From IMG/VR virus record IMGVR_UViG_3300044988_001028, positions 4,039-68,038 of that record: DNA of 64,000 nt. One strand, 5' to 3'. Shown here piece by piece: positions 1-56,099 of this stretch. The notes beneath the pieces were generated by a model. It was not told the DNA's origin and did not search any database. It saw nothing but the letters and a program-made list of their open reading frames with translations. A program made the translations under genes and the position numbers. Source of the DNA: a virus (lineage: Duplodnaviria; Caudoviricetes). The first letter of the stretch is position 1. Each line of letters opens with the position of its first letter.

Positions 1-2683
<2,683 letters not shown>

Positions 2684-2698
2684 TTATTTGCAATGATT

Positions 2699-3256
2699 TT
2701 AAGGTTTTATGGCAAATCCGAACATAAAAAGAGTTCTTGGTGTGTTTCCATGGCAAACATCCACACTATGATAAAGTTCAGTTACCAAGTAACACATCAT
2801 GTCGCCTTCATTTAAGTCATAGGTTTTATCTTCGACATGAATAGATCCACCACTTTCAGCTTTACTAGACAGAATATTACATCTCAATCCAACTAGTCCT
2901 TCACCAACACTTGGATCTTTGTGTCTGTAAACATCTCCATCGTTGTAAGTCACGCTAACCACAACACCGTCTTTTCCATGTCCTTCTATGACTGGAGAAA
3001 TTCCTACCAATGGAACCACTTGACGGATTCGATCTTGCAAGGTTTTAACTAGTTCTGGATAGTTTATATTTTGACTCATTCTGTTTGTGAGCCTTTTTTT
3101 TGTTGTGCTGAATTCTTTCTTATCCCAATCTCCAGTAATACCATCTACGAATTGACCTTCAGCAACAGCTTTTGCAGTCCAATCTTTTAGTATTTGAATT
3201 TCTTCAGAATTGATAAAGTTTCTTATAATCATTACATTTTCATCTTTTTCTATCAT
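2699..3256 (-). CDS. 2OG-Fe(II) oxygenase (prolyl-4-hydroxylase-like)
   Basis: HKD...H facial triad (YRHKD, LYHSV), GG motif and terminal R (TPRTLF). Start taken at MIEKDE (3256). Confidence 0.75.
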   Translation of the reverse strand: MIEKDENVMIIRNFINSEEIQILKDWTAKAVAEGQFVDGITGDWDKKEFSTTKKRLTNRMSQNINYPELVKTLQDRIRQVVPLVGISPVIEGHGKDGVVVSVTYNDGDVYRHKDPSVGEGLVGLRCNILSSKAESGGSIHVEDKTYDLNEGDMMCYLVTELYHSVDVCHGNTPRTLFMFGFAIKP

Positions 3257-3258
3257 TT

Positions 3259-3756
3259 TTACTGCCTTTTGTTTAAGTGTGGATAATCTATATATGGCGT
3301 TTTCTTTTTTAAGAAATCGCATAGTTTATCGAATTTTTCATCTTCTTTTAAATCTAGAATCAAAAGATCATCTTGTCTGTTTTTGAAATACTCTGAAACT
3401 TTCGAATGATGTCTGTGATACCCTTCAATGAATTTATCTTTATCAAAAATGAAAGACTTCCATAACATGAATCGAGTTTCTAATTGCCAAACAGGATCTG
3501 TGCTGGATCTATGAAGAGAAGCAGCACTTTCTATCCAAGAATCTATATCTCTGGTTGTTAGTATGAATTTAGATTCTGGATACAATAAATCTAAAAATTC
3601 GAACCTTGCAGCAACCGCTGTATCTGTGCTTGCATCAAAACTGTCTATTTCTTTATAAGACATTGGGCAATGAATAGCTGAATAACCAAGAACTTTCAAT
3701 GCTTCAGTTAAAGAAGTAGTTCCAGTTCTGGTTAGTCCTATGCCAAATACTTTCAT
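3259..3756 (-). CDS. Sulfotransferase-family (P-loop) protein
   Basis: KVFGIGLTRTGTTSL PAPS-binding loop; YPESKFILTTRD..W..S; KKTPYIDYPHLN. Confidence 0.8.
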   Translation of the reverse strand: MKVFGIGLTRTGTTSLTEALKVLGYSAIHCPMSYKEIDSFDASTDTAVAARFEFLDLLYPESKFILTTRDIDSWIESAASLHRSSTDPVWQLETRFMLWKSFIFDKDKFIEGYHRHHSKVSEYFKNRQDDLLILDLKEDEKFDKLCDFLKKKTPYIDYPHLNKRQ

Positions 3757-4280
3757 AGCTTGCTGAAAGCCTCACAATCATATGAATATGCTTGCTTGAT
3801 GAGATCTATCTGCTCTTGGCTTAAAGTTGGCATATCTCCATCTTCAGGTAAAGTAACAGTCACATCTAATCCAAGATATGTGCAGCAATCATTTAATCCC
3901 TTATCAGAATAAGGGAAATATTTAGCATTAACACAATCTAAAATTCCCATCTTTTTCAATGACATGAAATGTATGTTGTCAAGATTGTTCAAGCCTTCTT
4001 CAACAGAACAAGACAATCTCAAACATGAGTTTTTGAATCTTTCAACTGGATCTCTGACAATAACGGCAAATCCTAAGTTTAAACAGTCTGTTATGCTCAA
4101 GTCTTTGACCTCTGGAACATTTATGATGGGTTTCCATTCTGTTTCAGTATTCACAAAATCAGAATTGGCTTCTGGATAATTTTTTTTAATCAATTCTTTG
4201 AATATTACTTGTGATCCGCTTCTTGTAGCAAGAGCTAGACCTATGTTGTCCTTATGCCACATAAAACCTTTATTTGCCAT
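3753..4280 (-). CDS. Sulfotransferase-like protein
   Basis: ATRSGSQ and IVRDPVERFKN motifs; paralogous to the adjacent ORF. Confidence 0.55.
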   Translation of the reverse strand: MANKGFMWHKDNIGLALATRSGSQVIFKELIKKNYPEANSDFVNTETEWKPIINVPEVKDLSITDCLNLGFAVIVRDPVERFKNSCLRLSCSVEEGLNNLDNIHFMSLKKMGILDCVNAKYFPYSDKGLNDCCTYLGLDVTVTLPEDGDMPTLSQEQIDLIKQAYSYDCEAFSKL

Positions 4281-4803
4281 GATAGTTTTCCTTTATTTTT
4301 AAGTACAATTCATTATCGTTATGATATTTTTCAATGATCAATTTAATCTGATTATCGTTTAAAGATGGTTTTTTCTCATCTTTTTCTTCGTTGAGTTTAG
4401 GAACTGGAGTTTGAAGTCCGAGCCAATTCGCACATTCGTCAATTTGTTCTGGAAAAAGGAAATATTTTATTCTATCGTTTAAAAGACCCATGCTTTCCAT
4501 AGTCCAAAAATGAACTTCATCTTCGACCAATCCTTCTTCTACTGTTTTGTTTCGTCTTGCACATGCACTTCTGAATCTTTCGATTGGGTTTCTTACCATG
4601 CAGCATACTTCACATTCTGGAAGACCTAGTGTTAAATCATGCCCTTGCAAGTTCATGATTGGATGCCAAAGTTGTTCATTTAAAACTTCTGGTTTAAATT
4701 TAACATGGTCTTTAGGCAACATTAAATTCATCAAGGCATGACTTCCACTTCGTGTCACTAAAGCTAAAGCCTTATTGTTTATCAAAGAGCAAATGCCTCT
4801 CAT
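4270..4803 (-). CDS. Sulfotransferase-like protein
   Basis: VTRSGSH, MVRNPIERFRSA, C-terminal I.EKYH.D..LY pattern. Confidence 0.6.
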   Translation of the reverse strand: MRGICSLINNKALALVTRSGSHALMNLMLPKDHVKFKPEVLNEQLWHPIMNLQGHDLTLGLPECEVCCMVRNPIERFRSACARRNKTVEEGLVEDEVHFWTMESMGLLNDRIKYFLFPEQIDECANWLGLQTPVPKLNEEKDEKKPSLNDNQIKLIIEKYHNDNELYLKIKENYHGK

Positions 4804-6065
4804 GTTATAATCCCCATAAATTGAAGACCATAAACTTGTATTGTGTAGCCAGTACCACTTTTATTGCTAAATGTCGCACCGTTTTTTAGTTCCATTTTGT
4901 AATATCTATAAGATGCGGGAGAGGATATAGCATAGTTCACCAAGCTATTGTTGTTCGATATTCCAGTCCTATTATCTATTGATGTCCAAGTCGAATTGTT
5001 ACTGCTTCCGTACAGAGTCCACGCACCAGAATTAACATTACTATTAATCATATTGTAAGAACTTATTGTTACTGCCACTCCAAAATCAAGATAACCAGTA
5101 TCCGCTATTACTCCTGTTCCTGCCGTAAATGGACCCCAACTACTTTCAAAAAACTGACCCTCAAAGTAATCTTTAAATGGAGATACAGTACTAGTTCCGT
5201 TGGTAGGTACAATCCTATTCAGATATGGTTCGTTAGTTTTCCTTGATCTAATACTAAAATCTGAAAAAGCCTTCGGAAAGCTAGTCTTAAATGCTGTGCC
5301 AGCGGTTTCTGTCAATATAGTACCAGAACTATTTAAATACTTAAGGCTTGGAAATAGAGTATATCCACCATGAAGCTCACAAGAAGTTTCTGGGCTTTCG
5401 TAGCCCCATAGCTGGATTTCACCTATTTGAAAACCATTTACTAGTTCTACAACTCCGCTTTTAGTGTTACGAGTAGACCTTCCACCTTTTGTGATTATCA
5501 GTCTGTAAATCTTGTATGCAGATGCACCAGTTACGGTATATTCCGAATAAGAGCAGTTTTTCGCAAGCCTGTCTGTAGCATAAGGAAATCTACTTTGCGA
5601 AGATCTTGTGTCAATTGTTGTCCAATTAATTTGATCGTTGGAACCAGATAGAGTCCAGTCTTGTGGTGTCTCGTCAGCCATATTAGTGCTAACTGTGCCA
5701 TAATAAGAATTTGTGATTCCATATACATTTTCACCAAAAGAATTGTACATTCTATATTTCGTAATCACTACTGGAAGACCAAAGTTGAAATATGCTTTTT
5801 TGGTTGCAGTTGCTACTTCGGTGACATTTTTATAATGTGAATCCCAAGGATTTTGATATGGCAAGACACCAGTAAAAAGATCGTTTACATAACTATTACT
5901 CTTTGCAGTTCCATCAATTATACTGTAAGCACTAGCACTAATAATATCTACATTCCATATGGTATTATCGCTAGTAGTGAATTCATAGTATGGTCGGTAT
6001 TGCGAACTCACTTGCGTGTTGTCGTATGTTGTTCCACCTCCTACTAAAGCTCTTTCAGTCGGCAT
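4800..6065 (-). CDS. Tandem discoidin/F5-8 type C-like beta-sandwich protein (putative adhesin)
   Basis: Two copies of the WTL.GS.D...WT.ID.R...Y.YYR signature; paralogue of the C-terminal part of 6075..7406. Confidence 0.65.
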   Translation of the reverse strand: MPTERALVGGGTTYDNTQVSSQYRPYYEFTTSDNTIWNVDIISASAYSIIDGTAKSNSYVNDLFTGVLPYQNPWDSHYKNVTEVATATKKAYFNFGLPVVITKYRMYNSFGENVYGITNSYYGTVSTNMADETPQDWTLSGSNDQINWTTIDTRSSQSRFPYATDRLAKNCSYSEYTVTGASAYKIYRLIITKGGRSTRNTKSGVVELVNGFQIGEIQLWGYESPETSCELHGGYTLFPSLKYLNSSGTILTETAGTAFKTSFPKAFSDFSIRSRKTNEPYLNRIVPTNGTSTVSPFKDYFEGQFFESSWGPFTAGTGVIADTGYLDFGVAVTISSYNMINSNVNSGAWTLYGSSNNSTWTSIDNRTGISNNNSLVNYAISSPASYRYYKMELKNGATFSNKSGTGYTIQVYGLQFMGIIT

Positions 6066-6074
6066 AATTCACCT

Positions 6075-7405
6075 TTATGTTAAATATCCTTGTAGCTGTA
6101 TATCTCTTATTAGACCATAGAAGCCACCTCCAGACTTCTGGCTCGCAGTAGCCGAACTACCAAATATTGATATTCTGTAGTAAGAATATAAAGCTGGAGA
6201 AGCAATCGTAAAAGTAGCAGCAGAACCAACTGTTGCGAGTGTTCTTGTGTCTAATAATGTCCATGTTCCAAAAGTGTTCGCACCATAAACTCTAAATGAA
6301 TAAGTAGGAATAGCACCAAACACATTACTACTCCAAAGTTTATATGAAGTCAATGTGATAGGGTAATCAAATCCCAGATATCCCTCTTTCGTAGATCCAG
6401 CAGCAACAAAGAAAGCATTTGCGTTGTTTTTTGCAGTAGTCCATGCAGCTATACTATCAGTAAGGTTTAGAACAGTTCTCATGTTGAATGCGGAACTGAA
6501 TGGATCAGTATTCGTAACCACACCAGAACTTGTTAGATATTTCACAGTAGGGAGTAAGGTATTATATCCATGCAAAGCACATGGTGTTGTTGGGCTTTCA
6601 TATCCCCACAATTGTACTTCTCCGAGTTGAGTGTCATAACTACAATTACCACTCTTGCCACAATTCCAACCTGTTCTACCTCTTGCCGAGAGAACAAGTC
6701 TGTAAGATTTATAAGCTGCGGGTGATGATATCTCGAATTCCGAATAGCTGCTTGTTGCTGGATCATTTGTGCTGGCATAAGGCAACATCGCTTGGCTAGT
6801 TCTTGTATCGACTGTTGTCCAACTTATTTCATCGTTGCTGCCTTGCAATGACCATGCTTGCGGAGTTTGATTGCCTAAATCAGAATAATTTTGATAAACT
6901 CCAATATTAGCCATGAACCCATTCCACATTCTATATTTCGTTATGACTGTTGGAATTCTAAAATCAAAAATGAATGTCGGTAATGCTTTGCTCGAAACGG
7001 TATAGCTATAAGAACTATTCAAGGTGTTCTGTAGTGGGAGATAACCGTTTAAAATACAATTGTTAAGGTTGTTGTTTACAGATGTAAAATATTGTCTGTA
7101 ATCAGCATTTATGAATGTTGGATCATAAGTCACACCACCGCCAACTAAAGCTCTTGGTGTCGAATTAACACTTAATATCATCGTGTTTGGTGCTGCTGTC
7201 GTTGTGGTAGTTGTAGTCGTGGTTGTAGGTGCTGCTGTCGTAGTAGTTGTAGTCGTGGTTGTAGGTGCTGCTGTAGTTGTAGTTGTAGTTGTAGTCGTAG
7301 TTGTAGGTGCTGCTGTCGTAGTAGTTGTAGTCGTGGTAGTACCAGAGCTAGTAAAGGCTTTAAGCTGACCTTTCAAAATCATGCTTCCTAGTATTTTCAA
7401 TCCCA

Positions 7406-7406
<1 letters not shown>
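6075..7406 (-). CDS. Thr-rich (mucin-like) linker plus tandem discoidin-like domains; putative virion adhesin
   Basis: Start MGLKILG overlaps the upstream stop (TAATG). TTTTTTAAP repeats; WSLQGSND...WTTVDTR...YKSYRL. Confidence 0.65.
7186..7340 (-). repeat. Poly-Thr/AAP coding repeat
   Basis: Four (T)n-AAP units. Confidence 0.9.
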
Positions 7407-8563
<1,157 letters not shown>

Positions 8564-8566
8564 TCA

Positions 8567-8604
8567 AAAAAAAATCTTTTGCCTTTTACAGCAAAAGATT
8601 TTTT
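8567..8604. terminator. Intrinsic terminator (symmetric)
   Basis: AAAAAATCTTTTGC-cttttaca-GCAAAAGATTTTTT downstream of 8631..10904. Confidence 0.65.
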
Positions 8605-8630
8605 GGTTGCTTGATTAGAGCAAATTGAAA

Positions 8631-10934
<2,304 letters not shown>

Positions 10935-11007
10935 TTATCTCTATGTATTGGCTGTAAGCAAAACAATAAATTTGTTATCGGTGAAAATATGTAGTTCGGT
11001 GAAAAAT

Positions 11008-13225
<2,218 letters not shown>

Positions 13226-13754: not shown

Positions 13755-13848
13755 ATTTTCTTCCTCCTTGGATATTTATGAAGCTTTTTTTAAAAACGAT
13801 ATTGAATAAATTGACTAAATATAAGAAAATATCTTTTTGGAGACAAAT

Positions 13849-15279
13849 ATGACCACTTTGCTGGTGATTGATAACGATTATTGTCAACTTTTAACAACCA
13901 ATCATAAAATCAAACAAACTTTGTGGGATTGTCTGCGTTTTCGTGAACGGAACTACTTTCATAGCAGACTGTATAAACAGCGACTTTGGGATGGTTACAC
14001 AGAATTTTTTAAAAAAGAAACAGGAAGATTTTTGACTGGTCTTATTCCAGAAGTTTCTGCTGCACTGAAGCATTTCGATATTGAATATGAAATTCAAGAT
14101 AATAGATCAGAATTTAAATTTTCAGAAAATTTAATTGAAGAAAATTTTCTCAATCAGTGGCTACCAAAAGGACTTGAACCAATAAAACTTCATGATTATC
14201 AAGTTGAACTTATAAGCCAAGCCATAAAGCATAAACGAGGAATTGTATTCGCACCTACTTCGGCTGGTAAGACTTTAATTCTTTTGGGCATATTAAAATC
14301 ATTGCCTCCAAAAACACCAACATTAATTCTTCAAAATCGTGTAGGTCTTGCAGAACAAAACTACGCTGAATTAAAAAAATGGGATATTCCTAATCTTGGA
14401 AGATTGTGGGGCGGTGTAATTGAGCCAAACATAGTAACTGTCGCCAGCGTAATGTCTGTAAAAAAAATAGATAAAGCTTTAAGTAGATTTAAAGTTCTTA
14501 TTGTTGATGAAATACATGACATGATGTCTAAAACTCCAATAGATGTATACAAAAAACTTAAAAGTACGAGCGTTAGAATTGCAATATCTGCAACGCCTTT
14601 CAAATTTGGAGAAAAAGATAAAGTTCAAAAACACCAAGTGAAAGGATATTTTGGACCTATATTGAAAATAAAATCATCTGTCAATGGAGTCCTTACCACG
14701 GCACAACTTCAAGAAAGAGGAATTTTATCTTCAAGTAATTGCAATTTTTATCCTATCAATGAGCCAAGTATTCCTTACGACATATATCTTGATGCAGTCA
14801 CAAGAGGCATTGCAGAAAATTTTTATTTCAATGACATAGTTACCAGACTTGCCAAAAAATGCAAAGGAAGGACATTGATTCTTGTTGATCGAATTGCACA
14901 TGGAGACATTCTAAACAAGATGATTCCAAATTCGTTATGGGTTCAAGGTAAAGATAATGCAGACACTAGGAAGGAAGTAATTCAACAGCTTCAAAAATCA
15001 AAAAAATCTTTGATTGCAATTGCGACACAACAAATATTCAATACTGGTATTAATGTTTTTATTCATTCGCTTATAAATGCTGCAGGTGGTCAAGCAGATC
15101 ATCAAATCATTCAAAGAATGGGTCGTGGGTTGAGAACTGCAAAAGATAAAGAAGAACTAAATTATTATGATTTTGTTTTTAATATCAATCCATATTTGTT
15201 AGAACATAGCAAGAAACGCATCAAAATTCTACGAGAACAAGGACACAATGTTGTGGTCAACGAAACGACAGATATATGA
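13849..15279 (+). CDS. uvsW: UvsW-like superfamily 2 DNA helicase
   Basis: LHDYQ Q-motif, APTSAGKT, VDEIH, SATP, TGIN, QRMGRGLR. Start after GGAG at 13849. Confidence 0.85.
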   Translation: MTTLLVIDNDYCQLLTTNHKIKQTLWDCLRFRERNYFHSRLYKQRLWDGYTEFFKKETGRFLTGLIPEVSAALKHFDIEYEIQDNRSEFKFSENLIEENFLNQWLPKGLEPIKLHDYQVELISQAIKHKRGIVFAPTSAGKTLILLGILKSLPPKTPTLILQNRVGLAEQNYAELKKWDIPNLGRLWGGVIEPNIVTVASVMSVKKIDKALSRFKVLIVDEIHDMMSKTPIDVYKKLKSTSVRIAISATPFKFGEKDKVQKHQVKGYFGPILKIKSSVNGVLTTAQLQERGILSSSNCNFYPINEPSIPYDIYLDAVTRGIAENFYFNDIVTRLAKKCKGRTLILVDRIAHGDILNKMIPNSLWVQGKDNADTRKEVIQQLQKSKKSLIAIATQQIFNTGINVFIHSLINAAGGQADHQIIQRMGRGLRTAKDKEELNYYDFVFNINPYLLEHSKKRIKILREQGHNVVVNETTDI

Positions 15280-18236: not shown

Positions 18237-18683
18237 ATGAAAAATGTAATCAATATTTTTTTAGCATCTATATGTCTTGCTTTGATATTCTTAACAAGAA
18301 ACACTAATTCAAATAAAAGTGAAAATATATCTATAAATCAAACATCTAAAGATGTTGTCATTCAAAAAGATGACATTTATGAAAATGCGAAAAAAACAGC
18401 AAAAAAAGAAAACAAATCAATAATTCTTGTTTTTGGAGCAAATTGGTGTGTGTGGTGTCAAAAATTTGAGCATGATACATTAACTTCAAGTAGGTCAATT
18501 AGTGCTGTGGAATCTCATAATGCAATTATCGTTAAAATAAATGTTGATAAAAATCAAAGTACTGCAGGAAAATATGGAGTTAAATCCATACCTTGCACAA
18601 TTATTGTGGATAAAAATGAAAATGAAATTAAAAGAAAAGTAGGATATATGAATATTCGTGATTTTATATCTTGGCTTGATTAA
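18237..18683 (+). CDS. Thioredoxin-family protein with N-terminal signal/anchor
   Basis: FGANWCVWC CxxC, YGVKSIP cis-Pro loop, hydrophobic N-terminus. Confidence 0.85.
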   Translation: MKNVINIFLASICLALIFLTRNTNSNKSENISINQTSKDVVIQKDDIYENAKKTAKKENKSIILVFGANWCVWCQKFEHDTLTSSRSISAVESHNAIIVKINVDKNQSTAGKYGVKSIPCTIIVDKNENEIKRKVGYMNIRDFISWLD

Positions 18684-19375
18684 AATTCATATATGAATAA
18701 ATTTTTAAAATGCTCTAAAGTAGTATCATCTATACCAGTCTTATATAGTTGAATATCAAAATTCATCTTTTGCATCACACATTCTTTAGAAAGTTTTTCA
18801 AAGTATGGAGACAAAACTAAATAGTACGGAGATATTTTACCAAAATTAACATATCGGTATAACGATCCATCTTTTTCAAATTCTTTAAATTTTTCATAAG
18901 TTGGTTTATTTCCAAAATGTAAGTCAAAAAATTCTTTTGTTTTTTTAAGAGCCTCAATGATTTTGGGATTGTTAACTTTAGTTGTAGCGGTTTTTGACCT
19001 AATTTGAACAGTGGTATCATATTTCTTCTTCCATAATTTCCATCGTTTCCAAGCTTTATCTCCAACCAAACAATTAACTTCTATAAGTGGATGACCTTTA
19101 TCTAAACTTATATGTTTCAATATATCTAATTGCGCTCGAACATATAATGGATAATCGTCATCTCCTATAAATCCAGAAGTTTCACGAATTAGCTTATAGC
19201 AAACTTTAAACATTAAAGTTTTTCTTGGATCTCCTTTTCCAAATTTATTGTGATTATAACTTGGAAATATTTTTTTACTCATTTCCATCCATATTTGACA
19301 TACTTTCAAAGCTTTTACTTCTAATTCATCCATCTTGTATTTCTCAGCTAGTTTTTTTAAATCGATCATTATCAT
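18680..19375 (-). CDS. Hypothetical protein, possibly gp59-like helicase loader
   Basis: 231 aa, helical; C-terminal GKISPYYLVL loosely resembles the gp59 ISxET.V motif; replication-gene context. Confidence 0.4.
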   Translation of the reverse strand: MIMIDLKKLAEKYKMDELEVKALKVCQIWMEMSKKIFPSYNHNKFGKGDPRKTLMFKVCYKLIRETSGFIGDDDYPLYVRAQLDILKHISLDKGHPLIEVNCLVGDKAWKRWKLWKKKYDTTVQIRSKTATTKVNNPKIIEALKKTKEFFDLHFGNKPTYEKFKEFEKDGSLYRYVNFGKISPYYLVLSPYFEKLSKECVMQKMNFDIQLYKTGIDDTTLEHFKNLFIYEF

Positions 19376-19616
19376 ACCCTATAAATGAAATTTCTCAAGA
19401 TGGCATTTTATCTAGTTGAAAATTATCTTAGATTAAAGTATCATATCACAAATGAATGAAATTATTTTATTACTTTGGTTAGCATTGATTACGATAATCG
19501 TCATTTAAGTAATTGGAAAAATTCTTTCATTTTTATCAAAACAAGAATTAGATTAATCACATTCGTAGTTTTTTAAATGATTATTGAAAATGAAATTATT
19601 TTTTCAAAATAATCGA

Positions 19617-19645
19617 TTGCAATTTTATCTTACCTAAATTATAAT
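19617..19645 (+). promoter_or_regulatory. Sigma70-type promoter
   Basis: TTGCAA-17 nt-TATAAT. Confidence 0.7.
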
Positions 19646-19666
19646 AATCCTACTTGTCATAGAAAC

Positions 19667-19674
19667 TATAAATA
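19667..19674 (+). promoter_or_regulatory. T4-like late promoter
   Basis: Exact TATAAATA immediately before the structured segment. Confidence 0.55.
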
Positions 19675-19679
19675 ACTAA

Positions 19680-20095
19680 GACGGAAGCTTACTCTTCCCC
19701 TTTAGGTAATTGTTGAGGATACCCCAACGATAACTTACCGTGAAAAAAACTTGAGCAGCCCTGACGGGTAAGTCTTTGTAGTGAAAAACACGAATGGTGC
19801 AACGAGAACCATTGTTATGCTCGAAAAGCCAAGTCTTCCGCAGTTGTGTCAAAAATAGCCGACTCTCATTTTGCAGACAAGAAATGGGAACAACTGTGAG
19901 TTATATGGCTTCATTGGTATCAATTGTTCAAAACACAAGGAATCTTATGATGTTCATAAGAATTCATACTATGAGTTATCAGTTGAATCAAATGAATTAC
20001 GATATGTTTAAACACAGAAACAATTCAATTGATTATGTATGTAATTTCATTTAATTCATACATTAAACAGCAAGATAACTAAGTCGGCAACTCGG
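19680..20095 (+). ncRNA. Candidate structured non-coding RNA (unknown family)
   Basis: Many complementary pairs in an ORF-poor intergenic region downstream of two promoters (see findings). Confidence 0.5.
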
Positions 20096-20186
20096 TTTAC
20101 AATATAAAGATATAAAAATAGTAGAAAAATATTTTGTTACGACTTTTCTCTATTGATTTAAGTTCAAGCTATGGTAGATTTTATGT

Positions 20187-21581
20187 ATGAGTTCCATGCA
20201 TCCTAGTCAAATTGTTAAGCTGTTGTATGATCATGCAGCAACAGGGGCTGTTTACCTTTCAGCTACGGATGCTGTATTGGACTTTACGAGCAGAGAAAAG
20301 GCTAAAGAAGCCACGATATTTATTTGTTCTTCTTTTGGTTCGCATGAGATACCTTTGGATGGAGATTGGTCTGCAAGAATATTTTCCAAGGCTTTTTCTA
20401 ATTCTTTGTGTTGTGAAGGCAAAAAGATACTTGTTTGGAACTGGAAAGTCATAGCTTCGTTTTTGTTGGGAATGTATGGGATTACTATTGAATTTAAGGG
20501 AACACTCATTGATCTTAAGATTTTGGAAAGCTACACAGATACGAAGCTCGAAAAGCCAAAAACCATGATTGAATTCATGGGAAGATTGAAAAAGGTCATG
20601 TCTTCTGATAATTGGTCTAAAACACAAAAGATTTATAAGTCGGTTCATCTTCCCTTAGCTTTGGAAGTAGTTCCTTCGCTAGAAACGATTGGCATATTGA
20701 CAACCGAAAAGCTACATGCCTTTTATGACATAACTGGTCAAGAAAATGGAAGAATGCTTTGCTATAAGGCTCTCACAAGATCATTCGTTCCGCATGTCAT
20801 AAGTCCAGAACAGCGTGAATTATTGAAGCCTTTGGATTTTGATTCCGTATTTGTTTATATGGATTACAAAAGCATGGAAGTTAAAATGTTGGGTTGGTTG
20901 TCTGGTGATGAGGAAATAAATGGTTTGTGTGATAGCGAAGACATCTACAGAGTTGCTTATGAGAAAATTTTGAAAACTCCTTGTGATTCCGAAGACAAAA
21001 GATCATTATGTAAAAAAATATTTTTACCTGTCTTTTATGGTATGAGTGCTTATGGAATATCAGAGAAGTTTGGATTACCAATAAAAGTCGCAGAAGCAAT
21101 TGTTGACCGAATTAAAAATATATTTTTTAAAGCCTACAAGTGGATTGAAGATCACCAGAACAAAGCCGAAATCGATAAAAAAGTTGTGGATTATTGTGGC
21201 AAAATAAGGCATTTTCAAGATAAGTCTTATAGGGCTAGAAATTTTGCAGTTCAGTCTCCTTCTGCCATTTATTGTTTGTATCAATTGATTGGTCTTTACA
21301 AATCCTTGAATGGTATTGGGAGAATAGCTTATAATGTACATGACGGGTATATGATTTATGCAAACAGGGAAAAATTAAAAGAAGTTATTTTGGCTTCCCA
21401 TAAATCGTTGGTTTCAGAATGTAATTTATTTCCAAATTTGAGCATGAGCATTTCTTGCTCTGTTGGAAGAAAAATTACTGAGATGAAAACAATTAAACTG
21501 CCAAATAGGACTAAGAATGAAAAATCAAAAGAATCCGAAAAACATTTGCCAATCGTTTCCGATAACTCAATTGGAATATGA
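20187..21581 (+). CDS. Short family A DNA polymerase with degenerate 3'-5' exonuclease-like region
   Basis: Motif A YMDYKSMEVKMLGWLSGD, motif B RSLCKKIFLPVFYG, NFAVQS, motif C NVHDG. Confidence 0.8.
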   Translation: MSSMHPSQIVKLLYDHAATGAVYLSATDAVLDFTSREKAKEATIFICSSFGSHEIPLDGDWSARIFSKAFSNSLCCEGKKILVWNWKVIASFLLGMYGITIEFKGTLIDLKILESYTDTKLEKPKTMIEFMGRLKKVMSSDNWSKTQKIYKSVHLPLALEVVPSLETIGILTTEKLHAFYDITGQENGRMLCYKALTRSFVPHVISPEQRELLKPLDFDSVFVYMDYKSMEVKMLGWLSGDEEINGLCDSEDIYRVAYEKILKTPCDSEDKRSLCKKIFLPVFYGMSAYGISEKFGLPIKVAEAIVDRIKNIFFKAYKWIEDHQNKAEIDKKVVDYCGKIRHFQDKSYRARNFAVQSPSAIYCLYQLIGLYKSLNGIGRIAYNVHDGYMIYANREKLKEVILASHKSLVSECNLFPNLSMSISCSVGRKITEMKTIKLPNRTKNEKSKESEKHLPIVSDNSIGI

Positions 21582-22092
21582 TCATCTTACTAAGTGCTTT
21601 GGAAAGCTTTGTTATTACGCAGCACATCAATTGCAAAAGAAAAATTCAAAAAATAATTACACTGATGATTTTGAAGATATAAATCAAGAATTGCAATTGT
21701 CAATCATTCGTGCTGGATCTTATTATAAAAGACAGATATATATTGAGAAGTGTTTGGCTTCTGTAGATCAGCACAATATTGATGGCTTCATGAAGAAGAT
21801 AATAGTGAAGCTTCAAGATTTGTGGAGCAATAGAACTAGGCATGGTGCGAACAGACAGAAGTTTGGATACAAGCAGGAACGCATGCTTGATTTGATTGTG
21901 AAGTCTGTAGTTCCAAAGAAATTTAGACCAGATAGAAATGAACGATTGAAAATAGACACAAAATTTTCCACATACTGCAAAGCAATTGTTTGGAATGGGC
22001 AAAAAAGTATGGGCAAAAAAATAACAAGAGAGAAATCAATAAGATCGGGTCAGGTTTCTCTTTCTGAATATGATTATTTAAATGGCGAATAG
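21517..22092 (+). CDS. Sigma70 region-2-only sigma factor (gp55-like late sigma candidate)
   Basis: NYTDDFEDINQELQLSIIRA (region 2.2-like) and KFSTYCKAIVWN (region 2.3-like); no region 4. Confidence 0.55.
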   Translation: MKNQKNPKNICQSFPITQLEYDHLTKCFGKLCYYAAHQLQKKNSKNNYTDDFEDINQELQLSIIRAGSYYKRQIYIEKCLASVDQHNIDGFMKKIIVKLQDLWSNRTRHGANRQKFGYKQERMLDLIVKSVVPKKFRPDRNERLKIDTKFSTYCKAIVWNGQKSMGKKITREKSIRSGQVSLSEYDYLNGE

Positions 22093-23084: not shown

Positions 23085-24611
23085 ATGTACATGCGAGAGT
23101 TGACACCAGAAGAACAATCCAAATTCGATTCTTTTTCCGATCCAGATAATATAAAAACAAATTTTGCATGGGATGATACATTTCAAAGAAGAATTCTTGG
23201 AATGTTGTTGATGGATCAGACTATGCTCATTCAAAGCATAGACAAATTAAAGCCCCATTATTTCAGCAATGAAGTTCATGTCACTATTACAAAAATATTA
23301 TTCAATTATTTTCAAGAAAAAAGAATTTCTCCTCACATGGCTGTTTTGAAGCAAGAGCTTTTAAATCACCTCAAAGAAAAAGATAATTCAGTTCAATTGT
23401 ATTATATTTCTGAACTTGAAGCCTTATATGACTACTATGTTCCCGGTATTGACACTCGTGAATATCTTTTGGAAAGAGTTACATATTTTGCAAGGGTACA
23501 AGCAATTAAAGTAGCATTTCATGAATGTTTGCAAAAGATGTCGGAAGCACCAGAAGACGAAAAAACATGGTCTTATGTTTATGAAAAAATGCGTGAGTCT
23601 ATGAGTGTGGATACGGACTACGAACCGGGATTAGAGTATTTTTTGAATATCGAAGAGATGTTCAGAAGAATGGAAGATCAATTTCAAGGCAAGGAAAGAT
23701 TCACTAGTGGTTTTCCTTCCATCGATGATGCCTTGACGAATGGTGGCTTATTTCCCGGACAGATTGCAGCTTGGATTGGTTTGCCGGGAACTGGAAAAAG
23801 TTTGGCACTAGTAAAGGCTGCTGTTGCAAATGTTCTTCTTGGTCACAAAGTTTTGTACATAACATTAGAAATGGATGAAGTTGGTATTGCTCAGAGATTT
23901 ACAAGTCAATTTGCAAAGATAGATATTAATCTTTTAAGAGAATCAAAAGAACAGATAAAAAAGACTATTGCCGAATTTGGAAAAGACAAAGATGATCAAA
24001 ATCTTTTTATATTAAAGCAATTTCCGGGTGGTTCTATAGATGTGAATGGAATTCGTGGATATTGTTCACGATTAGAGGCAATGGGATGGAAACCAGCATT
24101 GATTATTATAGATTATGTTGGTGAAATGAAAGATGATCCAACTGTGAAAAAGTATGAATCTGCTTATAGAATATTGAGAGATTTGCGTGGCTTTGGTGTC
24201 GAGAAACAACATTGCACATTAACTTGTGTGCAACCAAATCAAACCGCTGCAAAGTTAGAAATATCGCAATATATTGATGAATCAAATATCGGAACATCAT
24301 TTGATCAGTTTAAACCTTTGGATGGATTCTGGTCGATCAATCAACAAACTATTGAAAAAGATGCAGAGGTTGGTCGTGGATTTGTTATAAAACATAGAAA
24401 TGGAAAATCAAGATTCCCATTCAAGATGGCTTTTGATTTTTCGATGGGAACTTTGGACATTTACGAGATTAGTGTGGATACTTACAAGGAAAGGCTAACT
24501 AGGGTTCAAATGCAACGAAGCGAAGATATTGCTTTTGATACTTACTCTGTTGATAAGAAGAAGAAGAAAGTTACATCACCCAAAAACAGCGTCATAGATG
24601 CAGAGGAATAA
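23085..24611 (+). CDS. Replicative DnaB/gp41-like helicase
   Basis: SGFPSIDDAL..GG, GLPGTGKS, YITLEM, IIIDY, Q.N, KHRNG. Confidence 0.9.
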   Translation: MYMRELTPEEQSKFDSFSDPDNIKTNFAWDDTFQRRILGMLLMDQTMLIQSIDKLKPHYFSNEVHVTITKILFNYFQEKRISPHMAVLKQELLNHLKEKDNSVQLYYISELEALYDYYVPGIDTREYLLERVTYFARVQAIKVAFHECLQKMSEAPEDEKTWSYVYEKMRESMSVDTDYEPGLEYFLNIEEMFRRMEDQFQGKERFTSGFPSIDDALTNGGLFPGQIAAWIGLPGTGKSLALVKAAVANVLLGHKVLYITLEMDEVGIAQRFTSQFAKIDINLLRESKEQIKKTIAEFGKDKDDQNLFILKQFPGGSIDVNGIRGYCSRLEAMGWKPALIIIDYVGEMKDDPTVKKYESAYRILRDLRGFGVEKQHCTLTCVQPNQTAAKLEISQYIDESNIGTSFDQFKPLDGFWSINQQTIEKDAEVGRGFVIKHRNGKSRFPFKMAFDFSMGTLDIYEISVDTYKERLTRVQMQRSEDIAFDTYSVDKKKKKVTSPKNSVIDAEE

Positions 24612-45402: not shown

Positions 45403-47475
45403 ATGGACGAACTTAAAAGATTCATAGGCAGATTCAATCAAAGCAAATTTAAAATTCTTAACGGAGAAATGTCATTTTCCGAATACATTGATCTGTGCTA
45501 TCAGCAACCAAGACTTGTTCGTAATTCTTGGCAAATGATTTACGACATGATTATGGAAAAGGGTTGTCATGCCGTTGAAGAATACAGAAAGACATACAAA
45601 CATTATAATTTTTTTGATAATCAGGAATGTCCAATCATTGGTCTGACACCAACTAAGGATTCTTTGGTTAAGTTCATCAAAGGTGCAGCTGGATATTTTG
45701 GTACTGAAAAAAGAATTCTTCTTTTGCACGGACCTGTAGGTAGCTCTAAATCTACAATCTGTAGATTGTTCAAGCGAGAATTGGAAAATTATTCCACAAC
45801 CGATGCTGGTGCTTGGTATACTTTCAAATGGATAAATCTTCCGACTGGACAAGATGGAATTTATGTCAAAGAAGAAGACGAATGCCCAATGCATGAGCAG
45901 CCACTTAAGTTGCTTCCTCCAGAAATTCGTAAACCTATTATGGATGATTTGAATCGAGTTCTTTCTGAGTCTGTATCTGCAGAAGAGAGAAATGAACTAT
46001 ATGCATTGAAGTGCGAGGGAGAGCTTGATCCAAGATGCAAGTTCTTTATGAAAGAACTTTTGATTAGGTATGATGGAGATCTCGAAAAAGTTCTCGAAAA
46101 ACATATTCGAGTAATTCGAAAAACATATAGCGAAGCAGATCGTGTTGGTATCGCCACATTCCAACCGAAAGATGAAAAAAATCAAGACTCTACAGAACTT
46201 ACAGGTGATATTAATTTTAGTCGTATCAGCACCTTTGGTTCCGACTCTGACCCAAGAAGTTTTAATTTTGACGGAGAATTTTGTGTCGGAAACAGGGGAA
46301 TTATAGAGTTTATAGAAGCTTTGAAGTTAGATCAAGCATTTTTATATGATCTCTTGGGAGCAAGCCAAGAGCAAAGTATTAAGCCGAAGAAGTTTGCACA
46401 AGTCTCTATTGATGAGGCAATATTTTGTCATACCAATAGCCCTGAATACGAAAGGCTTAGAAGCAATCAATATATGGAAGCGTTGCGTGACAGGACTGTA
46501 AAGATCGATGTTCCTTATACTCTTCGATGGGGCGAAGAACTTAAAATCTTGGAAAAAGATTATGGTGTAGATAGGGTCAAACAACATATCGCACCACACA
46601 CACTTGAAGTTGCTGCTCTATGGGCAGTTTTAACCAGACTTCATGATGATAAGGATGGTAAAATTTCCTTAGTCGAAAAGGCAGAGCTTTATGACGGCAA
46701 ACTTCTTTCTGGATGGACAGAAGAGCAAGTCAAAGAATTAAAGGATAGGTATCCTGATGAGGGTATGACCCGTGGTGTTTCAGTTCGTTATGTTCAAGAT
46801 AAGCTTTCAAACTGCCTAGCCAATAATCATGACTATGTAAATATGTTCATGGTTCTAAATGAGCTTCGTGAAGGTTTAGAAGGAAGTTCTTTGTTGAACA
46901 ATAAGGATGATGTTGGTCGATACATCACATGTATTGATTTAGTAGTTAAGAAGTTGACTGAAATTTTAAAAGCCGAAGTTCAGAAGGCTCTTGTTGGTGA
47001 TGAAGATGCGATTATTCGCCTTTGTGCTAATTACATTGATAATATCATGGCGTATATCAACAAAAGTAAGATTAAAGATCCAATCACAGGGCAAGATAGA
47101 AAGCCTGATGAAAGATTGATGCGAGCCATTGAATCTAAGATCGACATACCAGAACCGGGTGCTGATGATTTCCGTAGGCAGATAGCTGCTTTTATTGGCG
47201 ACCTTGCAATCAAGCACAAGCAATTTAGTTGGGATTCTAATCCAAAATTGAGAAAAGCTTTAGAAGCAAAGCTTTTTGAAGATGTAAAAGATACCATTAA
47301 GTTGTCCGCACTCAATGTTAGCGGAGCAACTGTGGTTGATAAGGATATTCAAGAAAAAATAGATGCGATTAAAACTCGCCTTATCAAACAGTATGGTTAT
47401 AACGAAAGATCTGCAACTGATGTTCTAGATTTTGTTGGATCTATATTTGCAAGAGGCGATCTAGCCGAGGAATAA
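45403..47475 (+). CDS. prkA: PrkA/YeaG AAA+ ATPase ('serine kinase')
   Basis: LLLHGPVGSSKST, CPMHEQPL, FQPKDEKNQDSTELTG, DPRSFNFDGE, EALRDR, HIAPHTLE. Confidence 0.95.
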   Translation: MDELKRFIGRFNQSKFKILNGEMSFSEYIDLCYQQPRLVRNSWQMIYDMIMEKGCHAVEEYRKTYKHYNFFDNQECPIIGLTPTKDSLVKFIKGAAGYFGTEKRILLLHGPVGSSKSTICRLFKRELENYSTTDAGAWYTFKWINLPTGQDGIYVKEEDECPMHEQPLKLLPPEIRKPIMDDLNRVLSESVSAEERNELYALKCEGELDPRCKFFMKELLIRYDGDLEKVLEKHIRVIRKTYSEADRVGIATFQPKDEKNQDSTELTGDINFSRISTFGSDSDPRSFNFDGEFCVGNRGIIEFIEALKLDQAFLYDLLGASQEQSIKPKKFAQVSIDEAIFCHTNSPEYERLRSNQYMEALRDRTVKIDVPYTLRWGEELKILEKDYGVDRVKQHIAPHTLEVAALWAVLTRLHDDKDGKISLVEKAELYDGKLLSGWTEEQVKELKDRYPDEGMTRGVSVRYVQDKLSNCLANNHDYVNMFMVLNELREGLEGSSLLNNKDDVGRYITCIDLVVKKLTEILKAEVQKALVGDEDAIIRLCANYIDNIMAYINKSKIKDPITGQDRKPDERLMRAIESKIDIPEPGADDFRRQIAAFIGDLAIKHKQFSWDSNPKLRKALEAKLFEDVKDTIKLSALNVSGATVVDKDIQEKIDAIKTRLIKQYGYNERSATDVLDFVGSIFARGDLAEE

Positions 47476-48696: not shown

Positions 48697-51600
48697 ATGT
48701 CTAATAAGTTCATGCATGGTTCTTCGCTTCTTATTGGCGACAACACAATTCCCGGAGTTCAGCTTCCAAAACAATTAAAAGAATATGCTCAAATAATTTT
48801 AAATGTTTGTAAAGATTGGGGTTTGGACTTTTATCCAACCGTAGTGCAACTTCTTACCTACGATGAAATCTCTGAAGTAGCAGCGTATGGTGGTTTTCCA
48901 GTACGATATCCACATTGGTCATTTGGCATGCAATATGAAGAATTGCAGCGTGGATATGAAAATCAAATGCACAAAATATATGAGATGGTTATCAATTGCT
49001 GTGAACTTGACGCTCCGGTTTTGACTAAGCGTGGTACAATTCTAGCTGGAGATGTGAAGGTAGGAGATCAAGTTATTGTTGGTAGTGAAACTAGGAATGT
49101 TGTCGCCATAAAAAAACAAAATTCTTCTCAAACCAAGAAAATTTTTCTTAAAGGTGGTCAGACATTAGTTTGTACGCCAAATCACAAGTGGCGTATACTT
49201 TCCGATAAAGGTTTGATCTGGAAAAAGACATCTGAAATTATTTCTGGTGACATTTTTGTAGGAACTGATTCTTATGAAAATAATTGGGATGCACCAAGTA
49301 TTGACTGGTCATCAAAACAAGTCATTGAATCAACAAGACCAAACATTAGACATTGTGTCAAAGAAATTTATCCGCCAAATCAGATTACTATGGAATTGGC
49401 AGAACTTCTTGGAATTTTGGTTGGAGATGGATCAGTAGGAGTAAAGTCGGCTGAAAATATGTTGACTGTTGCTGTTGGTAAAAAACATAGGTCATACGCA
49501 GAACATGTTGTATTTTTGTTTGAAAAGGTATTTGGAATCGGAGCAGATATTTACGAAAAGCCAAATTGTTTCAATGTAACATTATGCTCAAAAAACGCAG
49601 TTGATTTTGTTAATTCGATTGGTTTAAAGAAAGGCAACACATTTAAAGAAAAAGTAATTCCAGATATTATTTGGAAGTCTCCTCCTGCCTATAGATGTGC
49701 TTTTATTCGTGGTTTGTTCGATACTGATGGCTATGTGGTTAACCATGTTGGTTTTAGTTGCTACAATAAAAAATTGGCAGATGATGTTCAGATTATGCTT
49801 TCAGAAATGGGAATTCTTTCTAATTTAAAAACATTAAAAAATGGCAAGGGTAAAAAAGGTGATCAAAAATATATTAATGTTGTTAAAATTAAGGGAATTT
49901 GGGCTGAAAATAAATTTTACAATAGAATAGGTTTTGTGCTTAACTATAAGCAAGAATTACTTAAAAAATTACTTGATAGAAAATTTTGTCGTAATGGAGG
50001 TATGGAGTTGCCATATATTCAACAACAATTGATTATGTGGGCAAAAAATCTAAACATTACAACATATAACAACCATAGTCTTGGCTATTCAATTAAAATG
50101 TTCGAGAAACAAAAAGTTGGGATTAATTCTTTTTCTTCATTTGTACAAAGAGCAGAAAATCAAGGATTAAGTGTTCCAAATGAAATTAAAGATATTATTT
50201 CAAATCCTTTATTTGTTGTTGAGCATGTTGTTGATGGAGATGAGATCGAAACTGTTGATATTGCATTGGATCATGATGCTCATGATTTTATTGCATATGG
50301 ATTGATTACTCATAACACATCGCCATGTTACATCTATTGCTTAGATAGCAACACATTATTGGATCATCTGACTGTTATCGCTCACGCCACTGGTCATAAT
50401 GATTTCTTTAAAAATAATATTCACTTTTCTGCTACTGATACAAACATGTTGAACAACATGGCAAATCATAGTAGCCGTATTAAAAAATATATGGCTAGAT
50501 GGGGCAAGGAAAAGGTTACTGAATTTCTTGATTATTTACTTCGCATTGATACTTTGGTTGATGGAGCATCGGCTTGGCATCAAAAAGTTATCAAAGATAG
50601 AAATATTATTGATAAAAGAAATTATAGATTTCCAAAAAGACTTAAAGTTGATAGTGATCGATTTTATATGGATAATTACATCAACACAAAAGAGTTCAAA
50701 GAAAGAGAAAATGAAAAGGTAAAAGATAAGGATCTTGCAGAAGAACTTGGATTTTTTATAGAACCAGTTAAAGATATATTTGGATTTTTGCGTGATAATG
50801 CTCCACTTAAGCCTTGGCAACAAGATATCATGTCTATGATCTATGAAGAATCAATTTATTTTTTCCCACAGAGACAAACCAAAGTATTAAACGAAGGATG
50901 GGCTTGCGGACGAAAAGATTCTCTTGTATCTACAAATATGGGCATTTTGACATTAGGTGAAATTGTCGATAAAAAGTTGCCTGTTATGGTTTATGATGGT
51001 GAAAAATCTAGAAATGTTACAAATTGGTTCACTTTTGAAAATCGTGATGTTTATAGGATTGAAACTAGAAGAGGATATGTTTTTGAGGGTTCAAATAATC
51101 ATAGAATTATGGGTAATAATGATTGGGTTCGTCTTGATAAAATGAATGTAGGTGAAAAAGTTAAAATATCATTTTCAAATATTTGGACGAAAAAATATCA
51201 AAAAATCGATTATAAATTGCCCAATAAAAGGATAGAATTGAAGCAAATTTGTAAAAAAGCATCAGTGACTATGTCTCAAGTCGTTTATAGAAAATATCAT
51301 TATAAAGGTGAAGAAAAAAATGACAATTTAGACAAATTGCTCAAGCAATATGATGATCAGTCTATGACATGCATGAGAAATAAAAGGAAATGTATATCTT
51401 TGCCTTTTTTTATGGATGAAGAATTTGCTTCATTTGTTGGATATATGATTGGAGATGGTCATATATCTAAAAGCAAGAGAACTCTTGGCTTAACAACTGG
51501 AGATAAAGATCAAGCCGATAATTATATTCGTCTTACAAAGAAATTATTTAGTATAGATTGTAAATCTAGTTGGGATGACACATCTAAAAATGGTCGATAT

Positions 51601-56063: not shown

Positions 56064-56099
56064 AAAAAAAACAGGCTTGAAAATCAAGCCTGTTTTTTT
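56064..56099. terminator. Bidirectional intrinsic terminator
   Basis: AAAAAAACAGGCTTGA-aaa-TCAAGCCTGTTTTTTT between convergent genes. Confidence 0.85.

Follow-up and report, generated by a model that had tools for sequence, protein, structure and literature searches.

The stretch of viral DNA analysed here (64,000 nt, referred to below as the window; bases 4039-68038 of the 68-kb IMG/VR record IMGVR_UViG_3300044988_001028) encodes at 19652-20098 on the + strand a structured non-coding RNA of ~445 nt, which is the founding member of a conserved new RNA family. The family is pseudoknotted, widespread in and specific to huge freshwater phages, and stands at the head of a replication gene cluster in strict linkage to a family-A DNA polymerase (PolA) whose motif C reads HDG. 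This suggests that the RNA takes part in, or controls, the copying of phage DNA. The reading that we favour, with a probability of roughly 0.4, is that of a discrete, stable RNA working with the polymerase or the replisome near the origin as an initiator, primer or scaffold. The window itself comes from a very large phage genome of which it is only a part, CheckV rating the 68-kb record ~9% complete. The original prediction, made from the letters of the window alone, had proposed a structured non-coding RNA of ~400 nt on the + strand, of an unrecognised family and directly upstream of an atypical polA gene; apart from the size, which was too small, these points are borne out by the results below.

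Extent of the RNA and its promoter

The RNA lies in an ORF (open reading frame)-poor gap that separates a gene on the minus strand (18680-19375) from polA (20187-21581), and this gap, put at ~810 nt beforehand, measures 811 nt (19376-20186). The GC-richer segment noted within it is also real, as local GC content is 0.42-0.47 at 19700-19900 vs ~0.2-0.3 in the surroundings. The RNA and its promoter are as follows.

19652..20098, + strand: whole structured non-coding RNA, ~445 nt (from conservation boundaries, matches to covariance model R1 and covariation)
19617..19645, + strand: RNA promoter, with -35 TTGCAA (19617-22), a 17-nt spacer and -10 TATAAT (19640-45)

This promoter, which had been picked out correctly, matches the consensus at 10 of 12 positions and is of the sigma-70 type, with the predicted RNA start (~19652) a few bases past it. 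By eye, sigma-70-like -35/-10 pairs are found 5-8 nt ahead of the PK1 strand (see below) in most members of the family, GC-rich ones included, and in a subgroup that has no PK1 loop the -10 box is displaced downstream. When the window is aligned with its relative L004/L006 (PolA 73% identical) the alignment runs from exactly the -10 box to ~20098; farther upstream the relative has A+T-rich DNA that is unrelated to that of the window and carries an extra ORF, and at the other end conservation stops a few bases beyond the PK2 tail. The second promoter proposed at TATAAATA (19668-75) is not conserved and falls within the RNA itself, 3' of the covarying strand CUUGUC (19653-58). The promoter scan lists minus-strand promoter-like sites upstream of the RNA (19371-19622) and none inside it. 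The RNA falls into a 5' domain (19652-19910) and a 3' domain (19911-20098), and in homologues its length is mostly 431-451 nt, with 561-562 nt in two.

Secondary structure and covariation

The helices, pseudoknots (PK) and long-range pairings of the RNA are listed here in order of their 5' strands, all on the + strand.

19653..19658, + strand: PK1 5' strand CUUGUC at the extreme 5' end, partner loop GACAAG at 19876-19881 (covariation)
19675..19682, + strand: PKa 5' strand AC-U-AAGAC, partner GUCUU-U-GU at 19772-19779, crossing H3 (proposed by RNAalifold, unprompted)
19683..19698, + strand: H1 hairpin GGAAG-CUUACU-CUUCC with conserved loop CUYNCU (99-100% of cells paired)
19705..19739, + strand: H2 hairpin GGUAA-UUGUUG/CAACGA-UUACC, whose loop GAUACC (19718-23) is the PK3 5' strand (stems read by eye per lineage)
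19751..19824, + strand: H3 multi-helix junction, closed by UUGAGCA/UGCUCGA (90.5-100% of cells paired)
19827..19910, + strand: H4 domain, with outer helix AGCC/GGCU at 19827-30/19907-10 (covariation)
19841-47/19890-96, + strand: H4 middle helix CAGUUGU/ACAACUG (covariation)
19858..19863, + strand: H5 5' strand GCCGAC, partner GUCGGC at 20083-20088, a long-range helix of strands 220 nt apart that spans the 3' domain
19864-71/19882-89, + strand: H4 inner helix UCUCAUUU/AAAUGGGA, whose loop holds the PK1 3' strand
19916..19921, + strand: PK3 3' strand GGUAUC, partner the H2 loop (covariation)
19940..19965, + strand: variable hairpin GAAUCUUAUGA-UGU-UCAUAAG-A-AUUC, conserved only in the close relative
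19986..20034, + strand: 3'-domain stem (19986-98/20022-34), capped by a small hairpin
20005-20016, + strand: this small hairpin, UGU-UUAAAC-ACA, with a conserved hexaloop
20074..20080, + strand: GAUAACU, in the second copy of a repeated motif, partner AGUUAUC at 19974-80 or, less well, AGUUAU at 19899-904 (putative helix H6)
20091..20094, + strand: PK2 3' strand CUCG in the RNA 3' tail, partner CGAG in the H3c loop (covariation in the wider family)

Nested pairs were counted on a model-guided alignment of 29 distinct sequences; in this alignment, which was fitted to the model, standard pairs make up 87.5% of 1472 cells vs 37.4-44.2% when the partners are slid by 1-3 columns. Compensatory changes are seen in 52 of the 54 nested pairs (415 cells) and the observed pairing score was reached by none of 500 shuffles. 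Plain MAFFT alignments, used as a check, have H1, H3a, H3b and H3c paired in every cell, and RNAalifold reports double changes in 22 of 40 pairs. For the pseudoknots and long-range helices, 10 full-length sequences were aligned with MAFFT; 96.7% of the cells counted are paired vs 31-49% in slid controls. In total there are at least 10 covarying helices and at least four covarying pseudoknots or long-range helices, and the covariation in homologous loci, for which the original prediction had proposed a test, is massive. The folding energy agrees with it, as the + strand also folds better than dinucleotide shuffles (minimum free energy z-score -3.52, with -3.17 for the - strand; none of 100 shuffles as good on either strand).

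For individual elements the support is as follows. H1 shows compensatory change in all five of its pairs and in the MAFFT alignment is paired in 55/55 cells with four stem variants; its 5' strand GGAAG (19683-87) pairs locally with CTTCC (19694-98) and not, as first proposed, as part of CGGAAGCTT (19682-90) with the distant AAGTCTTCCG (19831-40), which is not conserved and reads AAGTAAGCC in other members. The stem now called H2 had been read correctly, and covariation supports it when it is read by eye within each lineage; it is poorly aligned (54-62% of cells paired) because its length varies. H3 encloses three hairpins (H3a 19758-69, H3b 19781-91 and H3c 19793-19813), the CCC/GGG, GTG/CAC and AATGGT/ACCATT pairings that had been placed inside TTGAGCA/TGCTCGA, and its helices show compensatory change in 18/19 pairs; the H3c loop GCAACGAGA bears the PK2 5' strand CGAG (19803-06). 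Covariation likewise upholds CAGTTGT/ACAACTG enclosing TCTCATTT/AAATGGGA, the H4 helices being paired in 88.8-96.7% of cells with compensatory change in 19/19 pairs. In the long-range pairing GCCGACT/AGTCGGC it is GCCGAC (19858-63) with GTCGGC (20083-88) that covaries, as H5, with 2 covarying pairs among the 10 full-length sequences and the variants GGCUGA/UCAGCC, UGCAGA/UCUGCA and GCUGAC/GUCAGC.

Among close members PK1 shows only G.U-compatible variation, and the wider family supplies at least six compensatory variants (CUCGUC/GACGAG, UGCUCU/GGAGCA, UCUCGU/ACGAGG, CUCAU/AUGAG, AUCGC/GCGAU and CUUGUCG/CGACAAG). PK2 is invariant among close members and reads CGAG/CUCG, CGGG/CCCG or CAAG/CUUG in the wider family. 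PK3 has compensatory change in 3/6 pairs (AGUAUC/GAUACU, GUACC/GGUAC), with GCGC/GCGC seen by eye in GC-rich members. PKa is paired in 97.1% of cells, with variation among close members that is one-sided and mostly retains G.U, and 2/70 cells are unpaired. Both ends of the RNA are thus tucked into internal loops, the 5' terminus via PK1 and the 3' tail via PK2. The direct repeat ATAACTAAG(A/T)CGG reported for both ends was found at 19672 and 20075; its 5' copy contributes to PKa and its 3' copy to H5 and to H6, a helix that we regard as tentative because its register differs among lineages. The hairpin TCTTATGA-tgt-TCATAAGA is present as described but restricted to the window and its close relative; the region is variable, with an insertion of ~110 nt in L035/L022. 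The UUAAAC-type hexaloop, with a complementary and covarying 3-bp stem, is found in 19/29 sequences with eight different stem pairs.

These data also bear on two alternatives to an RNA, namely a small protein gene and an element acting as DNA (origin hairpins or a site of single-strand initiation). Proximity to the GC-skew minimum (see below), the folding of the - strand, which is likewise better than that of shuffles, and the existence of an 86-aa ORF (19794..20054, + strand) speak for such an element or gene. G.U and U.G cells, however, outnumber A.C and C.A cells by 118 to 31 (96 to 12 without H2), and from this excess it follows that a transcript of the + strand can form the pairs and its complement cannot, which makes + the RNA strand. 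The dedicated promoter is conserved, the substitutions are pairwise compensatory and not codon-like, and the 86-aa ORF matches nothing in Pfam or PHROG and is not conserved as protein, two 1-nt indels splitting it into 34- and 55-aa frames in L004, the nearest relative. Both explanations are therefore largely refuted and we consider them very improbable. A hidden gene read in an alternative code was also considered and rejected, TAG=Q or table 4 opening no long frame in the gap.

Comparison with known RNA families

Rfam 15 (4227 models, including group I/II introns, RNase P, tmRNA, 6S, the signal recognition particle (SRP) RNA, GOLLD, ROOL, OLE and HEARO) gave no match to the whole window at gathering thresholds. 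Among less significant matches to 19350-20250 there were two chance ones only (E ~7-8), both outside the RNA, and the RNA regions of eight diverse homologous loci gave nothing at E up to 1. A blastn search of the gap against the phage GenBank collection also gave no match. Searches of the literature gave no description of the RNA, and passages of the candidate-RNA catalogues PMC10690425, PMC2864571 and PMC5737381, supplements apart, are silent on it; the first of these has ~8,500 candidate RNAs of mean length 67 nt, among which short fragments of this one could be present.

Introns are common in phage polymerase genes, and the size and pseudoknotted architecture of the RNA are like those of large ribozymes, with a 5' end that pairs to an internal loop in a way reminiscent of guide sequences. 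That it is a self-splicing intron of degenerate or unusual form, or some other mobile ribozyme, is nonetheless largely refuted and hardly to be expected here, given that there was no Rfam intron match (E up to 10 for 19350-20250, up to 1 for the eight homologous loci), that flanking exons are missing and that the RNA is single-copy at one fixed site. Upstream lie a promoter and non-conserved A+T-rich DNA, and downstream PolA homologues with and without the RNA have complete, collinear N-termini.

Distribution of the family and linkage to PolA

The neighbouring gene encodes the following protein.

20187..21581, + strand: short family-A DNA polymerase, 464 aa (Pfam PF00476, E 2e-19, residues 172-429)

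It aligns with residues 557-800 (palm and fingers) of Taq Pol I and has canonical motifs A (DYKSMEV) and B (FYGMSAYG), but motif C is VHDG instead of VHDE, and HDG is found in 7/7 aligned homologues. The N-terminal 170 aa match no family and carry a conserved (I/V)LDFT(D/S) motif; an exonuclease domain is not recognisable in the protein.

Members of the RNA family were sought with degenerate DNA patterns drawn from the junctions and loops of the RNA, which gave 11 viral contigs and 12 metagenome stretches; 11 of the latter are true members and the twelfth, L055, is a chance match in GC-rich coding DNA. R1, a covariance model of the 5' domain (270 positions), was then run against 53 sources, ~30 chance-pattern control loci included, and found true members only, with 23 matches at E <= 4e-42 and one junk match at E 0.96. 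In 60 viral loci collected through PolA alignment R1 detects the RNA in 41 (E 2e-90 to 8e-11), and in all 41 it is on the + strand, upstream of and co-oriented with PolA, and no gene ever intervenes. Conversely, a pattern for the RNA only returned 27 viral contigs, every one of which is also on the PolA list and has the RNA directly ahead of PolA on the same strand. The same pattern had no match in 185,579 species-representative cellular genomes, a search that diverged copies could escape, the pattern being exact. In six of six large records (G001-G006; 120-225 kb, estimated 26-52% complete) the RNA is single-copy; RNA-bearing IMG/VR records overall are of 68-225 kb and estimated 9-52% complete. 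The linkage holds over a wide range of divergence, as RNA-bearing loci have GC contents of 0.34-0.55 and the PolA of GC-rich members can be as little as 35% identical to that of the window, with R1 still scoring 179-215 bits on these members. The upstream neighbour differs by lineage and the order RNA, PolA, 185-aa protein, DnaB-like helicase is kept. At the nucleotide level the 5' domain of the RNA is more conserved than polA in 6/6 comparisons.

Nineteen of the 60 loci have no R1 match. Three of these (L065, L069 and L101) have little or no upstream DNA, six form one clade (L075-78, L095 and L111) in which a different conserved region fills the slot, and the others are L106-109, L089 and L112-116. 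With filters off R1 gave only junk on RNA-less loci (E >= 0.15), and the best E of an nhmmer profile of A9 on them was 0.33. The best PolA match (32% identity), in the 595-kb phage LR756511, has an unrelated 387-aa ORF in the slot upstream of PolA, and R1 has no match anywhere in that record.

The RNA could also be an ornate phage RNA that merely shares an early, origin-proximal block with polA and has a job apart from the polymerase, serving for example in host takeover or forming an RNA-only assembly as ROOL and GOLLD do. Large phage-borne RNAs of unassigned function do exist, GOLLD and ROOL being examples (PMC12286853). Relatives of PolA manage without the RNA, and in other lineages its slot holds a primase-like ORF, the 387-aa ORF or a ~750-nt ORF-free region. 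Set against this are the adjacency in 41/41 loci in spite of the divergence of PolA and of GC content, and the fact that the RNA stays with PolA when the upstream neighbour changes; we therefore hold an unrelated job to be unlikely. Should the RNA act with the polymerase, as we favour, family-A DNA polymerases would have their first RNA cofactor, and the start of megaphage replication would become easier to approach.

Other occupants of the slot are of interest in themselves. The region in the L077 clade (L077:1781-2500, L095 and L075) is ~750 nt long, free of ORFs and 91% identical among three variants; it has no similarity to the RNA family by covariance model or nhmmer and may be another large RNA. 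In L106 (1169-2452) and L107 the slot holds a 427-aa ORF, unrelated to the 387-aa ORF of LR756511, with a sub-threshold match to an archaeo-eukaryotic primase (AEP; PF22548, E 9e-5, 22.6 bits, cut-off 27). That the RNA replaces a primase is a lead only, the match being below threshold and the absence of a primase from the 68-kb record of the window uninformative.

A discrete RNA or a leader of polA

Two features lie between the end of the RNA and the polA start codon.

20115..20135, + strand: A+U-rich hairpin AAAAUA-GUAGAAAAA-UAUUUU, followed by U-rich sequence (sequence reading)
20153..20180, + strand: promoter-like element TTGATT, 16-nt spacer, TG-n-TAGATT, ending 6 nt before the ATG (sequence reading)

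The spacer from RNA to polA is 78-161 nt long, not conserved, and usually opens with an A+U-rich hairpin; the one in the window may be a weak terminator or just part of the spacer, and hairpins comparable to it can be read after the RNA tail in other members. A pairing of the RNA tail with GUUACGACU (20135-43), considered as an expression platform, is possible in the window and absent in L006, and no conserved expression platform was found beside the RNA, the spacer sequence being unconserved and no terminator-like site preceding polA. The separate polA promoter of the original prediction, TTGATT-16-TAGATT, is only a weak match to the consensus, preceded by TG. By eye, L006, L035, L038, L039 and L045 likewise have a hexamer resembling a -10 box that ends 6-7 nt ahead of the polA start codon, and where it is used the polA mRNA would be leaderless.

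Some evidence of expression comes from RNA libraries. Metatranscriptome contigs of 151 nt, from two runs of different studies (lake water and freshwater), are identical to 19708-19858 and 19665-19815 and jointly cover 19665-19858 at 100% identity, which is a weak hint that the RNA is expressed; the transcript ends are not addressed by these contigs. Run X1 has contigs both on the RNA and on the 5' part of polA, the latter of 291 nt. No contig bridging the two was found in runs X1 and X2, where coverage is too low for this to count and where uncovered parts of the stretch are no evidence of absence, and runs X3 and X4 had no matching contigs.

The most serious competitor to a discrete RNA is a cis-acting 5' leader of polA or of the replication operon, co-transcribed with it and controlling polA. 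It could be a riboswitch or ribozyme of very large size, an operator that the polymerase binds for autoregulation, or a stabiliser at the 5' end. Taking these variants jointly we regard a leader as possible, though somewhat doubtful. In its favour are the invariable position directly upstream on the same strand at so short a distance from the start codon, and the finding of X1 contigs on both RNA and polA. Precedent exists in that T4 gp43 represses its own mRNA: the T4/RB69 gene 43 operator, too, is an RNA element ahead of a phage DNA polymerase gene, where the polymerase binds its own mRNA leader. That operator, however, is a hairpin of ~40 nt overlapping the ribosome-binding site, whereas the phage RNA has ~445 nt and ends ~90 nt before the start codon. 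Across the family, 430-560 nt with at least four pseudoknots is far beyond the size of known cis-regulators, the conserved structure stops at the PK2 tail and leaves a non-conserved spacer where an expression platform would have to lie, and in several members a promoter-like element abuts the polA ATG. If the RNA is a leader, no other cis-regulator of a replication gene would come near it in complexity.

The favoured reading is that the RNA would be made as a stable, compactly folded molecule and not merely as an mRNA leader, that it would act with the phage PolA or the replisome, and that it may serve PolA as an origin-proximal initiator, primer or scaffold. We prefer a discrete RNA because it has its own conserved promoter, because both ends are engaged in covarying pseudoknots with conservation stopping there, because the spacer is not conserved and polA may have a separate promoter, and because large RNAs whose genes adjoin those of one protein family are usually in complex with that protein. 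Several observations weigh against this. The terminator scan of the window region found no canonical terminator between RNA and polA, so that the lack of one also suits a leader, and read-through from the RNA into polA is possible. The polA promoter-like element is weak (8/12 consensus, unlisted by the promoter scan), and L085 and L104 have no such element before polA and an AGGAG ribosome-binding site instead, as would be expected with a leader. The RNA-library contigs are of low depth and could stem from DNA in the libraries. PolA relatives that have no RNA (the L077 clade, L089, L106-109 and LR756511) show no obvious protein difference, being mostly HDG with two HDA, and it follows that the polymerase is not strictly dependent on the RNA. 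Finally, the GC-skew minimum is 3.5-5.9 kb off the RNA, and not at it, in 3/4 records, and the skew is in any case confounded by gene orientation.

Position relative to the GC-skew minimum and possible roles

A GC-skew analysis for an origin had been called for at the outset, and in all four records analysed a minimum of the cumulative skew lies 0.2-5.9 kb from the RNA, inside it in G003 only. There the global minimum is 189 nt from the 5' end of the RNA gene; it is 3.5 kb upstream of the RNA in G004 and 5.9 kb upstream in the window, and G002 has a local minimum (2.8th percentile) 3.5 kb upstream. Transcription of the RNA is directed away from the minimum in all four, and an origin-proximal location fits these data within the limit on skew just given. 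Support for a role as primer, template or scaffold, or as an R-loop origin transcript, all of which had been suggested, is circumstantial and consists of this position, the covarying pseudoknots that hold both RNA ends and the promoter-like element that may precede polA.

Family-A polymerases extend RNA made by RNA polymerase at the ColE1, T7 and mitochondrial origins, and ColE1 RNA II requires a defined fold. The phage RNA resembles these transcripts in being promoter-driven, a few hundred nt long, leading-strand-directed, near a presumed origin and associated with a family-A polymerase. The likeness is contextual, as the phage RNA is more elaborate, has several covarying pseudoknots and shows no sequence or model similarity to them; RNA II, moreover, forms a persistent hybrid with the origin DNA, is processed by RNase H and extended by Pol I, and has an antisense regulator, RNA I, encoded on the opposite strand.

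In retrons and the defence-associated reverse transcriptase (DRT) systems a non-coding RNA upstream of the reverse transcriptase serves as primer, template or scaffold, and in these phages too the RNA is immediately upstream of and co-oriented with a polymerase gene and strictly linked to it across wide divergence. Unlike retrons and DRT systems, the polymerase is of family A (Pfam DNA_pol_A only) and not a reverse transcriptase, the setting is a replication module with a DnaB-like helicase and not a defence island, and no template or branch features were identified. A bolder form of the favoured reading makes the RNA the obligate partner of the HDG family-A polymerase, itself without a recognisable exonuclease domain; DNA synthesis at the origin would begin with the folded RNA as primer, template or scaffold, in what would be an RNA-protein replication-initiation machine of genomes of ~0.4-0.75 Mb. 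We think this form improbable; if true, a family-A polymerase would be working in the manner of a retron or telomerase, a combination not so far described.

Among large structured RNAs, OLE (with OapA) and HEARO/omega RNA (with IscB) are also longer than 300 nt, highly structured and tied to one protein family, but the phage RNA has no Rfam match to them and differs in its partner protein and its hosts, which are huge phages. GOLLD and ROOL are similar in kind, being phage-borne, several hundred nt long and pseudoknot-rich with many covarying helices, which is a descriptive resemblance and not homology. They are typically found near tRNA genes, whereas the phage RNA matches neither model, is tied to PolA, and lies in a window in which ARAGORN found no tRNA or tmRNA gene. 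Natural RNAs this dense in covarying helices and pseudoknots are rare, and ribozymes, OLE, GOLLD, ROOL and omega RNAs each opened new biochemistry. The present one is at least as conserved as the neighbouring polymerase and sits at the head of a replication module near the GC-skew switch. Structural and biochemical work on the family can begin at once, as 29 different sequences, a covariance model that works and a defined secondary structure with pseudoknots are available.

Neighbouring genes and other features of the window

The replication module is on the + strand in the central part of the window (~14-56 kb, ~33% GC). Its genes near the RNA, with the divergent gene that precedes the RNA, are these.

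13837-15279, + strand: SNF2-type helicase
18237-18683, + strand: thioredoxin-like protein, 148 aa
18680-19375, - strand: gene of unassigned family, 231 aa, divergent and upstream of the RNA (no family match)
21517-22092, + strand: 185-191-aa protein (191 aa in the window), overlapping the end of polA (homologues in L006, L038, L022, L039 and L045)
between the 191-aa protein and the DnaB-like helicase in the module listing, + strand: glycosyltransferase-like protein
23085-24611, + strand: DnaB-like helicase

The 185-191-aa protein is far more conserved than PolA, with identities of 64-87% where those of PolA are 36-73%, and has no Pfam or PHROG family. Its AlphaFold2 (AF2) model is predicted to be all-helical (pLDDT 73.7). 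A sigma-like factor was considered for it and rejected, since besides the lack of a Pfam or PHROG family Foldseek found nothing in the PDB at E <= 0.001. The 231-aa protein, to which Pfam and PHROG likewise give no family, is kept in A+T-rich lineages, also in the RNA-less L106, L089 and L095, and GC-rich lineages have other genes in its place. In T7 DNA polymerase thioredoxin is the processivity factor, and the thioredoxin-fold protein encoded at 18237-18683 near a family-A polymerase recalls that arrangement, by analogy.

Farther downstream the phage encodes a PrkA-type kinase (690 aa, 45403-47475) and a SpoVR-like protein (1368 aa, 48697-52803) that is split by an intein with LAGLIDADG domains. 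The 33%-GC core is flanked by minus-strand blocks of 41-50% GC (2-13194 and 56098-63831), which encode three collagen-repeat proteins (RCC1 repeats also occur in one) and a protein of 2577 aa built from 19 cysteine-rich Stig1-like repeats.

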